Below, piece after piece: positions 59,386-64,000 of a stretch of DNA of 64,000 nt; position 1 is the first letter of the stretch; each line of letters opens with the position of its first letter. The stretch is from Alphaproteobacteria bacterium (GTDB lineage Bacteria > Pseudomonadota > Alphaproteobacteria > GCA-016699305): NCBI GenBank assembly GCA_016699305.1, contig CP064970.1, positions 1,034,066 through 1,098,065 on the forward strand, given 5' to 3'. Both the position numbers and the translations under genes were made by a program. A model generated the notes under the pieces. It was not told the DNA's origin. It saw only the letters and a list, made by a program, of their open reading frames with translations, and did no database searches.

Positions 59386-62300
59386 TTAATCTCCTCCTCC
59401 CGAGCCTCCCCCACCATCTCCCCCACCATCTCCTCCTCCATCTCCCCCACCATCCCAAGGCGGTGGCGGCGGTGGCGGCGGCGGCGGCGGCGGTGGCGGC
59501 GGCGGCGGTGGCGGCGGCGGCGGCGGCGGCGGCGGTGGCGGCGGCGGCGGTGGCGGTGGCGGCGGCGGCGGCGGTTCTGGCGTCGGTTTGGGCTGCTCAC
59601 AGCACGGCGGTGGCGGCGGCGGTGGCGGCGGCGGTGGCGGCGGCGGCGGCGGTTCACAGCACGGCGGCGGCGGTGGTGGCTCTGGCGGTGGCTCTGGCGG
59701 CGGCGGCGGCGGTGGTGGTGGCGGCGGTGGTGTATAAGTATGACCAACCGTCACAGAAACCACAGCTGTTCCGGTATCCACACCCCAACCTCCGGTGGAT
59801 GAACCGCCTGAGCTGCTACCCCCTGAGGAACTGCCGCCCGAAGACGAAGTCCCGCCCGAGCTGCTGCTACCCCCCGAGGAACTACCGCCCGAAGACGAAG
59901 TCCCGCCCGAGCTGCTGCTACCTCCCGAGGAACTGCCGCCCGAAGACGAAGTCCCACCCGAGCTGCTGCTACCCCCCGAGGAACTACCGCCCGAAGACGA
60001 AGTCCCGCCCGAGCTGCTGCTACCTCCCGAGGAACTACCGCCCGAAGACGAAGTCCCACCCGAGCTGCTGCTACCCCCCGAGGAACTACCGCCCGAAGAC
60101 GAAGTCCCACCGGAGCTGCTGCTACCCCCCGAGGAACTGCCGCCCGAAGACGAAGTCCCACCCGAGCTTGAAGAAATGATCACGGATCCGCCCGAGCTAC
60201 CCGAGCCGCCGCTTCCTCCACCCGAACCGCCGCCGGAAGAACCTCCGTCGCCACCCGAGGAAGAAACGCCGCTACCACCCGAGCTGCCGCCACCGATACC
60301 ACCCCCGATATCGCCACCACCACCACTCGAGCTGCCCGAACCGCTGCCGCCGCCTGTGCCCCCCACTTCGCCGCCCTCTGCCTCGGCCAACAAGGGATCG
60401 ACGACGGTCTTACCGCCAGGCTTTTTACCCGGGGCACCCCCAATGGTGGATGTCATGGAACCACCGTTACCACCCGAAGAGGCCCCACCCGCGCCGGAAC
60501 CGCTGTTCTGTTCTTCGGCCAATAGAGGATTCTTGCCCCCCTTATTTGATGAACCGGCTCCAGGCTGACCGCCCTGCATACCGCCCGAGGCCGCACCCGG
60601 CACGCCATATTCGCCATATCCAGTGCGACCATCACCGCCTTGCCTCGACTGGCCGCCCTGTTCCTCGGCCAACAGCGCCGCATCTTGCTCCGAGCTGCCG
60701 CTACCGTCACCTTCTTGACCACCTTGTTCATCGGTCAATAGCGGAGCCTTTGGCTTACCGTTCTTTCCGGCATTACCAGCCTGACCGCCTTGTTCTTGAG
60801 CCAGTAAGGCACCCTTACCCCCTGCCCCAACAGCCTGACCGGCCTGACCGCCTTGCACACGAGTCGGTGCACCTTGAGCATAAGTCCCGCCCGGCTGCTG
60901 ACCACTCAAGCCGCCCTGGCCACCTTGCGTAGCGGACTGACCTGCCGGTGAACCGCCCGCTTGGGCATAACCCGATGTTCCAGCCTGACCACCTTGCACA
61001 CGAGTCGGTGCGCCTTGGGCATAAGTCCCGCCCGGCTGCTGACCACTCAAGCCGCCCTGGCCACCTTGCGTAGCGGACTGACCAGCCGATGAACCACCCG
61101 CTTGGGCATAACCCGATGTTCCAGCCTGACCACCCTGAACACGAGTCGGTGCGCCTTGAGCATAAGTCCCGCCCGGCTGACCGCTCACACCGCCTTGGCC
61201 CACCTGAGTGCTTGAACCTGCATCTTGTTGAGCGTAACCCGACGAAGTGCCGGCAGAACCGGCCTGACCGCCCTGTTCTTGAGCCAACAACGCCGTCTTT
61301 TGTCCAGCCGTTGGTGCCCCCTGACCGCCAACGCCACCTTGAGCACGCATCGCCGAACCCTGGGCCACAATATATTCACCCGAGCCTGTACGATCCGTCA
61401 CACCGGCCTGACCAGCCTGGCCGCCCTGCACACGAGTCGGTGCACCTTGGGCATAAGTTCCGCCCTGCTGACCACTCACGCCGCCTTGGCCGCCTTGCGC
61501 TGACGAAGCCGATTGGCTGCCGCCTTGGGCATAACCCGAATCTCCAGCCTGACCACCCTGAACACGAGTCGGTGCGCCTTGAGCATAAGTCCCGCCTTGC
61601 TGACCGCTTACGCCGCCTTGCACGGATGAAGCCGATTGGCTGCCGCCTTGGGCATAACCCGAAGTCCCAGCCTGGCCGCCTTGAACACGAGCCGGCGCAC
61701 CCTGAGCATAAGTTCCGCCCTGCTGCTGACCGCTCACACCGCCTTGGCCGCCTTGCGTGGCGGACTGACCCGCCGTGCTACCAGCTTGAGCATAACCCGA
61801 AGTCCCAGCCTGACCACCTTGAACGCGAGTCGGTGCGCCTTGGGCGTAAGTTCCGCCCTGCTGACCGCTCACACCGCCTTGGCCGCCTTGCGTGGCGGAC
61901 TGACCCGCCGTGCTACCAGCTTGGGCATAACCCGATGTTCCAGCCTGGCCACCTTGCACACGAGTCGGTGCGCCTTGGGCGTAAGTTCCGCCCTGCTGAC
62001 CGCTTACGCCGCCTTGGCCGCCTTGCACGGACGAAGCCGATTGGCTACCAGCTTGAGCATAACCCGATGTTCCAGCCTGACCACCTTGCACACGAGTCGG
62101 TGCACCTTGGGCATAAGTTCCGCCCTGCTGACCGCTCACACCGCCCTGGCCGCCTTGCGTGGCGGATTGACCCGCCGATGACCCGCCCGCTTGGGCATAA
62201 CCCGAATCTCCAGCCTGACCACCCTGAACACGAGTCGGTGCGCCTTGGGCGTAAGTTCCGCCCTGCTGACCGCTTACGCCGCCTTGGCCGCCTTGCACGG

Positions 62301-64000: not shown

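Follow-up and report, generated by a model that had tools for sequence, protein, structure and literature searches.

A Giant, Modular, Low-Complexity Gene with a 39-Proline Run in an Uncultured Alphaproteobacterium, Apparently Lacking Annotation

Introduction

Can a bacterial reading frame that stays open through thousands of nucleotides of repetitive, low-complexity sequence be a genuine gene and, if so, what might its product do? The question is raised by one end of a 64,000-nucleotide stretch of DNA from an uncultured alphaproteobacterium (positions 1,034,066 to 1,098,065 of contig CP064970.1, GenBank assembly GCA_016699305.1), hereafter called the window and numbered from its first letter. 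Here a minus-strand open reading frame (ORF), hereafter named the giant ORF, encodes in succession a non-repetitive region, a long array of Gly/Gln-rich repeats, a Ser/Gly block, a proline tract and an acidic tail. A preliminary description, drawn from the DNA letters and a list of their ORFs, had made several claims on its extent, composition and nature, which are considered below with the results that bear on them. The analysis presented here shows that the giant ORF is a genuine protein-coding gene of the minus strand, modular, low in complexity and restricted to its lineage, which appears to have remained without annotation.

Extent and Modules of the Giant ORF

The minus-strand frame 59386-63999 comprises 1,537 codons without a stop before the TAA at 59386-59388, in agreement with the frame of more than 4.6 kb, running past the window end, that had been reported initially. 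Because it is still open at the window edge, its true N-terminus must lie off the window; the extent of 59386-63933 given in the ORF listing reflects nothing more than the first GTG within the window. None of the other frames spans the same region, the longest rival being a plus-strand ORF at 61089-63332 that lies within the repeats. The visible product has at least 1,537 residues (141 kDa, pI about 6.5) and is as repetitive and low in complexity as had been stated. Its modules are listed in table 1 together with the features that lie downstream of the gene.

Table 1. Position of the giant ORF, of its modules from N- to C-terminus and of the downstream features (aa, residues of the visible product)
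Feature	Position	Strand	Details
Giant ORF	59386..63999	-	1,537 codons + TAA; open to window edge
Non-repetitive N-terminal region	63562..63999	-	aa 1-146; 6 Cys; GC 0.49; incomplete at window edge
Hydrophobic signal-peptide-like segment, MVPAARLAMAAFGISSAHA followed by A	63502..63561	-	aa 147-166; internal to ORF
Non-repetitive linker	63235..63501	-	aa 167-255, 89 residues; Ser/Ala/Thr/Gly-rich
Gly/Gln/Ala/Ser/Thr/Tyr repeat array	60748..63234	-	aa 256-1084; 16 cores
(A/P)LL(A/T)xE(Q/A)GG-motif region	60355..60747	-	aa 1085-1215
Ser/Gly block	59788..60354	-	aa 1216-1404; 94 Ser + 79 Gly in 189 residues
Short beta-strand-like segment, WGVDTGTAVVSVTVGHTYT	59731..59787	-	aa 1405-1423; directly before proline tract
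Proline tract	59458..59730	-	aa 1424-1514; 91 residues, 79 Pro
C-terminal Trp and acidic Gly/Asp tail	59389..59457	-	W-DGGGDGGGDGGGDGGGGSGGGD, then TAA
Intrinsic terminator	59338..59364	-	12-bp GC-rich hairpin, then UUUUCUUUUU; 22 nt past stop codon
mlaE	58372-59214	-	downstream of giant ORF; Pfam MlaE 1.7e-78; QQR68244.1
mlaF	57540-58346	-	downstream of giant ORF; Pfam ABC_tran 1.9e-30; QQR68243.1

The repeat array, in which Gly and Gln account for 30% and 19% of the residues, is built on the consensus unit YAQGAPTRVQGGQAGTSGYAQAGSxAGQSATQGGQGGVSGQQGGT. Its core, AP[TA]RVQGGQAG, was counted 16 times, fewer than the approximately 20 repeats of 45 residues first estimated. Full units of 41-47 residues account for 12 of these copies, the others belonging to two 23-residue half units, one 97-residue unit carrying the second of the RTGSGEY modules and one final degenerate unit. 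The RTGSGEY modules of the array lie at residues 258-264 and 870-876, with a third in the form RTGYGEY at residues 1125-1131; two further copies of the (A/P)LL(A/T)xE(Q/A)GG motif also occur inside the array, at residues 904 and 1065. The tryptic repeat peptides predicted from these units, VQGGQAG...GAPTR, are 44-47 residues long (for example VQGGQAGTSGYAQAGSTAGQSATQGGQGGVSGQQGGTYAQGAPTR).

The Ser/Gly block contains six exact 17-residue units, and between 59812 and 60168 Tandem Repeats Finder (TRF) detects 7.0 copies, at 95% match, of a 51-nucleotide unit that encodes GGTSSSGGSSSGGSSSS. In the proline tract, the residues counted (table 1) fall short of the roughly 95 prolines announced for it and are arranged in runs of 12, 3, 6, 16 and 39; the two CCE interruptions noted at the same time are indeed present, at 59653-59661 and 59596-59604, and each provides a pair of vicinal cysteines.

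The N-terminal part of the visible product required separate consideration, since a segment resembling a signal peptide had been noted near 63546. A hydrophobic segment (MVPAARLAMAAFGISSAHAA, residues 147-166), with an ATG at 63561 and with MVPAARLAMAAFGISSAHA followed by the residues AQ, does exist there, but it is internal to the frame, with at least 146 codons of open frame upstream. Between 63400 and 64000 the giant frame alone is free of stops, each of the other five having several, and by our calculation the chance that 146 codons stay open in DNA of 49% GC is about 7e-4. When codon usage was modelled on 33 window ORFs, the log-likelihood of 63562-63999 was +13.0 in the giant frame versus -9 to -32 in the five others; a score of +13 was reached by none of 143 off-frame control windows, even if it ranks within the bottom 6% of genuine in-frame windows. 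The ATG at 63561 has GGGG at zero spacing upstream and no other Shine-Dalgarno-like sequence. Because the upstream frame is open, improbably so by chance, and coding-like, and the ATG is devoid of a spaced Shine-Dalgarno sequence, the segment is not N-terminal; it is an internal stretch or else the vestige of a former start, since fused to an upstream coding region. It does not, therefore, constitute a Sec signal peptide placed right after a start codon. Its maximal Kyte-Doolittle mean over 19 residues (1.39) is under the usual transmembrane threshold, and no segment of transmembrane grade was found in the whole visible product (maximum 1.45). No paralogue of the N-terminal region was found in the window or in the mlaE loci fetched for the synteny comparison described below. 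The signal-peptidase ending SAHA of the segment is also that of three N-terminal signal peptides in the window, which belong to the ORFs 31635-33101, 48489-48959 and 49197-49865.

Evidence for Coding and Purifying Selection

The repeats offer an internal record of the selection acting on the frame. In a core of 19 codons aligned over 15 repeat copies, the variable columns number 2, 1 and 15 at first, second and third codon positions, respectively, and pairwise codon differences are 620 synonymous versus 62 non-synonymous. The Nei-Gojobori method, applied to 13 copies of 25 codons, gives a synonymous divergence (dS) of 0.44 and a non-synonymous divergence (dN) of 0.023, with a dN/dS ratio of 0.05. 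When the count was repeated in all six frames, the excess of third-position variation remained confined to the giant frame, so that the plus-strand frames, already suspected to be non-coding, can be considered as such. The plus-strand ORF 61089-63332 in particular was rejected as the coding frame, given that the variable sites fall on its second codon positions and would cause almost only non-synonymous changes. The 51-nucleotide copies of the Ser/Gly block follow the same trend, with 0, 0 and 4 variable columns at the three codon positions, and every tandem period reported by TRF (3, 12, 24, 51, 69, 135, 138, 204, 270, 342 and 405) is a multiple of 3. A dN/dS of about 0.05 indicates strong purifying selection on the repeat peptide, whose near-invariance despite a dS of about 0.44 argues for a sequence-specific role of the repeats.

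Codon choice in the proline tract is likewise distinctive. Its prolines are encoded by 57 CCG, 20 CCA, one CCC and one CCT, the latter two making up 2 of 79 codons compared with a 54% share among the prolines of 25 other window ORFs (nominal binomial P about 1e-23, the codons of a repeat being non-independent). Consecutive prolines are reported to favour CCG and CCA and to avoid CCC and CCU, with faster translation and less frameshifting (reviewed in PMC12856214), and the preference seen in the tract agrees with this published pattern (PMC12856214). The longest natural proline runs known in model bacteria are of 8 residues in Escherichia coli (PMC4218817) and 4 in Bacillus subtilis (PMC12856214), from which the run of 39 lies far away, in line with the rarity initially asserted for bacterial runs exceeding 20 prolines; for the uninterrupted runs of 16 and 39 no bacterial precedent could be documented. 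Elongation factor P (EF-P) must be required to translate 39 prolines in a row (PMC12856214).

The downstream end of the gene provides independent support. The intrinsic terminator has a folding energy of -29.6 kcal/mol (z = -3.85), and short-read contigs (Logan, SRR11674044) match the window with 100% identity, the 3' end of the giant ORF included; one of these contigs ends at window position 59488, where the proline tract begins. Two related populations, L084 (SRR14932528) and L085 (SRR21803635), are 93% and 91% identical to the window over mlaE-mlaF. In both, the covered part of the tail (the last 13-15 residues, GDGGGDGGGGSGGGD) and the position of the stop are unchanged, the differences being limited to GGC>GGA, GAT>GAC and TAA>TGA, i.e. 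synonymous or stop-to-stop, and the terminator is kept. The two contigs (positions 1-90 and 1-80, respectively) break within the 12-nucleotide tail repeat; a homologous low-complexity gene is, therefore, probably present upstream in these populations too.

Homology Searches and Annotation Status

The absence of a described counterpart, which had been stated for the product, held in every sequence search. An hmmscan against Pfam-A gave no family at E <= 0.01, NCBIfam none at E <= 1 and PHROGs no match, while PDB was not matched by sequence searches or by the repeat profile. A set of 5.8 billion proteins contained no match to the N-terminal 250 residues, to residues 147-1240 or to the C-terminal 143 residues; the same was true of JGI metagenome contigs (N-terminus or repeats), of viral contigs, and of plasmids and phages searched with tblastn. 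HMMER without filters, run with residues 1-1200 against 1.84 billion representatives, returned two matches only, both to actinobacterial WD40-repeat NTPases; these were rejected as homologues, their alignment stemming from a similar repeat period. Judging from these sequence comparisons, the giant gene belongs to no known family.

The homology searches did not return the giant ORF itself either. Proteins of neighbouring genes are deposited in GenBank (YebC, QQR68230.1; the orphan of 416 residues, QQR68240.1 or IPI58_05100; MlaF and MlaE, accessions in table 1), and no protein entry for the giant region was found among the in-window ORFs looked up there (five of the plus strand and three of the minus strand, with their start codons tried). 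Since the neighbours are deposited and its own entry was not found, the giant ORF appears to be unannotated; we infer that the GenBank record does not present it as a protein, either by leaving it unannotated or by marking it as a pseudogene. Short-read assemblies break at the edges or repeats of the gene, and look-ups reach only short Logan contigs.

Structure Prediction and Comparison with Known Systems

AlphaFold2 (AF2), run in single-sequence mode on the N-terminal 200 residues, was uninformative (predicted local distance difference test, pLDDT, 32). For seven repeat units, also without an alignment, one of five models was a beta-solenoid with pLDDT 62.8 and predicted template modelling score (pTM) 0.62, strictly periodic with four strands per 45-residue unit, the other four models having pLDDT near 30. 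A Foldseek search of this repeat model against PDB gave nothing significant. For repeat sequences, AF2 has been reported to propose beta-solenoids with high confidence that are not realistic, an artefact that AlphaFold 3 reportedly does not share (PMC11795689), and a beta-solenoid fold is only weakly suggested by the prediction. The 23-residue half units suggest a structural period of approximately 22.5 residues, and together with the strong purifying selection on the exact peptide they point to a defined structure or binding role for the repeats. The intrinsic disorder originally claimed for the protein becomes uncertain, given this selection and the single beta-solenoid among the AF2 models.

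Functional amyloids, namely curli CsgA and others such as FapC, are one term of comparison. Curlin repeats span 23 +/- 5 residues, with two N-$-Psi-$-Psi-$-Q motifs (QX10Q kernel) and X-G-X-X arcs (PMC10192328), and the half-unit of about 22.5 residues fits their length range (PMC10192328). However, the Curlin_rpt profile of CsgA (PF07012) is not matched by the giant product (at Pfam E <= 0.01 and NCBIfam E <= 1), and in its consensus unit the Gln residues are only 3-8 apart, the N/S-x-Psi-x-Psi-x-Q motif being absent. The product also differs from CsgA by its 45-residue unit, a size approximately ten times larger and the additional Ser/Gly, polyproline and acidic modules. The Pfam scan, which covered part of the window ORFs, on the visible side of the gene, detected no csgB, csgE, csgF or csgG gene.

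Secreted and surface-attached proteins of other types were also compared. The hallmarks of RTX or LapA-type adhesins do not appear, for there is no HemolysinCabind match, GG.G.D occurs once by chance (residue 1403), and the tail has a period of 4 (DGGG) without the hydrophobic position of the RTX nonapeptide; in place of adjacent genes for a type 1 secretion system (T1SS) ABC transporter, membrane fusion protein and TolC, the ORFs scanned on the visible side of the gene include only a MacAB-type set some 30 kb away. In contrast to autotransporters (type Va), the complete C-terminus consists of polyproline and (DGGG)n, with no beta-barrel. As regards TpsA or FHA proteins, the two-partner secretion (TPS) domain (PF05860), which in them follows a signal peptide, is not matched in the visible 146 N-terminal residues, the true start lying beyond 64000; the TpsA encoded in the same window (10261-15798) was readily detected by the Pfam scan. 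This latter ORF (plus strand, 1,845 residues) has an N-terminal TPS domain, GLUG motifs and four YDG domains, as expected for a TPS exoprotein; no obvious TpsB gene adjoins it, and the ORF upstream encodes a WYL/WCX regulator. Bacterial collagen-like proteins, characterised by a long unbroken (Gly-X-Y)n, can also be set aside, as the product has only two windows of five consecutive G-x-x triplets and no Collagen match in Pfam.

Plant extensins and algal hydroxyproline-rich glycoproteins combine long polyproline-II rods with Ser-rich stretches and with residues that can cross-link chains, and so would the giant product. Unlike them, it has no SPPPP, hence no Ser-Hyp4 motif, its host is a bacterium, in whose window neither prolyl hydroxylase nor arabinosyltransferase was seen, and its cross-linking would involve Cys rather than Tyr. 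Spidroins and the prion-like domains of FUS and Sup35 are dominated by short motifs rich in Gly, Gln, Tyr, Ser and Ala, comparable to the GGQ, QQGG and GYAQ of the array; the product lacks, however, the poly-Ala blocks and conserved terminal domains of silks, and its 45-residue units are strictly conserved in sequence, not in composition only. The extensin-like or silk-like nature ascribed to the protein at first holds, therefore, as an analogy of composition only, SPPPP motifs, poly-Ala blocks and terminal silk domains all being absent. The periplasmic rod of TonB, made of (EP)n and (KP)n and followed by the C-terminal TonB domain, and the hinges of IgG3 and IgA1 are further examples of Pro-rich stiff spacers, and the hinge cysteines can form inter-chain disulfides in a proline context. 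Relationship to TonB itself is contradicted by the lack of a TonB_C match and of any transmembrane-grade segment (maximum Kyte-Doolittle mean 1.45), and by the Gly/Asp tail at the end of the product. In kind, the giant product resembles the broad class of large repetitive surface or fibre proteins of bacteria.

Genomic Neighbourhood

The giant ORF had been described as lying directly upstream of, and co-oriented with, mlaE-mlaF. This position is real but is probably incidental, to judge from the terminator between the giant ORF and mlaE, the GC content at third codon positions (GC3; about 0.5 in the giant ORF versus 0.8 in mlaEF) and the synteny of relatives. For comparison, 80 alphaproteobacterial mlaE loci were fetched with flanks of up to 10 kb, and no part of these stretches, upstream of mlaE included, carries an ORF similar in composition or proline run; the longest proline run there, of 10 residues, is found in an unrelated gene on the opposite strand. 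The best identity of MlaE to any GTDB representative is 72%, to Rhodospirillales-like metagenome-assembled genomes (MAGs), so that the comparison includes no close genome. The intervening terminator, the divergent codon usage and the missing synteny in relatives all speak against the giant gene being functionally linked to mlaEF, which is probably a separate transcription unit. Co-transcription was discarded because of the intervening terminator, and regulation of mlaE through ribosome stalling in the proline tract was also discarded, since the tract ends approximately 95 nucleotides before the hairpin, which would be too far for coupling.

In this part of the window (57307-59214), mlaE-mlaF is followed by DUF1653 and trpS; in related alphaproteobacterial loci (L003-L019), the gene after mlaF is an ORF of about 450 residues, presumably the MCE/MlaD component. 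The substrate-binding partner of MlaEF is thus not adjacent in this genome.

The window, which is chromosomal DNA, contains housekeeping genes (trpS, yebC, rluB-like, rsmD-like and uvrD/rep) and also genes for a methyl-accepting chemotaxis protein (MCP), a PleD-like regulator and a MacAB-type exporter. Many of its orphan ORFs have GC3 values of 0.4-0.6 versus about 0.8 in core genes, and the giant gene (about 0.5) falls in this atypical class. Three large orphans of the minus strand, 43598-45232, 51778-53115 and 54823-56073 (544, 445 and 416 residues), have no Pfam or NCBIfam match and a GC3 of 0.46-0.59, below the core-gene value of about 0.8; together with the giant ORF they form a lineage-specific set that is unusual in codon usage and scattered among housekeeping genes.

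Other ORFs of the window deserve mention. The adjacent plus-strand ORFs 48489-48959 and 49197-49865 encode small Cys-rich proteins that are identical over an N-terminus of about 53 residues and fully divergent in the remainder. The shared part comprises the signal peptide MDAMLKKTIIGFMLALFAGPLSAHA, with E next after the cleavage site, and about 28 residues, neither protein having a Pfam match; the pair looks like a duplicated secretion or N-terminal cassette with swapped C-terminal domains. The plus-strand ORF 31635-33101 combines a Cys-rich low-complexity N-terminal half, with a 24-nucleotide tandem repeat at 31803-31868, and a C-terminal half resembling an outer-membrane barrel. A defence-like cluster occupies positions 1-9135, with an N6/N4 DNA methylase (3-1628), two orphan ORFs, a SNF2/helicase of 990 residues (3479-6451) and a WYL-WCX regulator (7630-9135). 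Insertion sequences lie at 15875-16855 (IS30-like) and 19079-19924 (DDE_Tnp_4), a Fic/DOC protein is encoded at 17689-18813 and a class A beta-lactamase at 20517-21416.

Discussion

The reading that we favour, albeit tentatively, is that the giant product may be an exported, self-associating structural protein of a fibre or matrix located on or outside the cell. We infer its export from features of the sequence, namely the six Cys in the 146 N-terminal residues and the two CC pairs, the lack of transmembrane helices, the SAHA motif, and the presence of other large or Cys-rich exported orphans in the same genome. In such a fibre protein, the Cys-containing N-terminal region would form a folded head and the 16 conserved Gly/Gln/Tyr units, with their sub-period of about 22.5 residues, the assembling part, which could be a beta-solenoid, an amyloid-like stack or a prion-like gel. 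The (SSSGG)n block could act as a flexible spacer, possibly glycosylated, and the 91 residues of the proline tract as a rigid polyproline-II rod of approximately 28 nm (91 x 0.31 nm), in which the two vicinal Cys pairs, placed in a proline context, might, like the cysteines of antibody hinges, cross-link chains through disulfides. The acidic (DGGG)n tail may bind cations such as Ca2+ or an anchoring partner. Translation of the tract would depend heavily on EF-P, to which the choice of CCG and CCA codons looks adapted, and the position beside mlaEF would be coincidental.

Several points weigh against this interpretation. The beta-solenoid emerged in only one of the five AF2 models (pLDDT 62.8), a kind of result prone to artefact (PMC11795689), and an array so rich in Gly and Gln (30% and 19%) could equally be disordered. 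The roles given to the Ser/Gly block, the proline rod, the Cys pairs and the tail derive from composition and general protein chemistry. The visible part of the product, whose gene runs off the window, has no signal peptide at its N-terminus and no secretion domain, and no gene for curli, T1SS, TpsB, glycosyltransferase or prolyl hydroxylase was found among the ORFs of the 64-kb window scanned with Pfam.

An improbable alternative is that the product is a type-1-secreted surface protein similar to RTX adhesins, in which the Gly/Asp tail would be a degenerate Ca2+-binding or secretion region, the N-terminal domain a retention module and AHA/AQ a processing site. A giant modular protein with an acidic, Gly/Asp-rich extreme C-terminus and no transmembrane or barrel domain would suit this possibility, as would the HlyD/FtsX/ABC genes of the MacAB-type set about 30 kb away. 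Yet MacAB is an efflux-type system, no T1SS ABC, membrane fusion protein (MFP) or LapG/LapD genes were found nearby on the visible side of the gene, and substrates of T1SS are normally poor in Cys. Moreover, GGxGxDxUx nonapeptides are absent, the single chance occurrence reading GGWGVD, and neither HemolysinCabind nor BIg domains are matched.

It is quite improbable that the protein serves as an effector directed against a eukaryotic host, grazer or prey, its polyproline mimicking the FH1 or ActA-type ligands of profilin, SH3, WW and EVH1 and its repeats forming a prion-like condensate domain in the target cell. Runs of 12-39 prolines are a typical eukaryotic trait that is met very rarely in bacteria (PMC4218817, PMC12856214). 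With its single contig of 2.06 Mb, the genome is small, and the GC3 of the giant ORF (0.5 versus 0.8 in core genes), the many other orphans of atypical GC3, the TPS exoprotein, the Fic protein and the IalB-like genes would be in keeping with interactions of this sort. Conversely, Pfam and NCBIfam detect no WH2/FH2-like actin-binding domain or other eukaryote-like domain, the window contains no genes of type III, IV or VI secretion systems, the organism has traits of free-living bacteria (the MCP chemoreceptor and the PleD-like regulator), and an effector of more than 140 kDa consisting mostly of Gly/Gln repeats would be unusual.

The hypothesis that the protein remains in the cytoplasm, as a polar matrix or condensate-forming low-complexity scaffold rather than an exported fibre, has similarly little likelihood. 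It would account for the lack of a demonstrable N-terminal signal peptide in the visible part and for a Gly/Gln/Ser/Tyr composition like that of phase-separating domains, but an N-terminal region rich in Cys, as well as vicinal Cys pairs, would better suit an oxidising compartment, and no bacterial cytoplasmic scaffold is known to combine such a size with a rod-like proline tract.

The proposal that the locus is non-functional, i.e. an artefact of long-read MAG assembly or a neutrally expanding satellite left open by chance, could invoke the missing protein entry beside the deposited QQR68240-QQR68244, the edges at which short-read assemblies break and the atypical GC3, but it is very unlikely and already largely refuted, because a dN/dS of 0.05 with third-position variation in one frame only, the intact 4.6-kb frame, the periods in multiples of 3, the selected Pro codon choice, the terminator past the stop, the tail and stop kept in two other populations and the 100% confirmation of the 3' end by an independent short-read contig all speak against it.

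Returning to the exported structural protein, its most far-reaching form would make the giant product the first representative of a class of bacterial extracellular fibre proteins not yet described, in which a Gln/Gly/Tyr beta-solenoid or prion-like array is combined with a mucin-like Ser/Gly spacer and a disulfide-cross-linkable polyproline-II rod of about 28 nm, the tract containing perhaps the longest natural proline run known from a bacterium (39) and representing a codon-selected, extreme substrate of EF-P. We regard this fuller proposal as rather unlikely in all its parts.

Conclusions

The main interest of the giant gene lies in its extreme proline tract with a distinct codon signature, in the unusually strong selection on a low-complexity repeat, in the complete absence of relatives and in the apparent failure of both short-read assembly and annotation to capture it. 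If made, the protein challenges the notion, based on model organisms, that long runs of proline are avoided by bacteria, and would put EF-P-dependent translation to an extreme test in nature. The conservation of 16 Gly/Gln/Tyr copies despite a dS of about 0.44 argues that low-complexity sequence can face strong sequence-specific selection, and points to a new self-assembling material, fibre or gel. Finally, because short-read assemblies break at the edges of this gene and annotation appears to have overlooked it, proteins of this kind may be systematically missing from databases.

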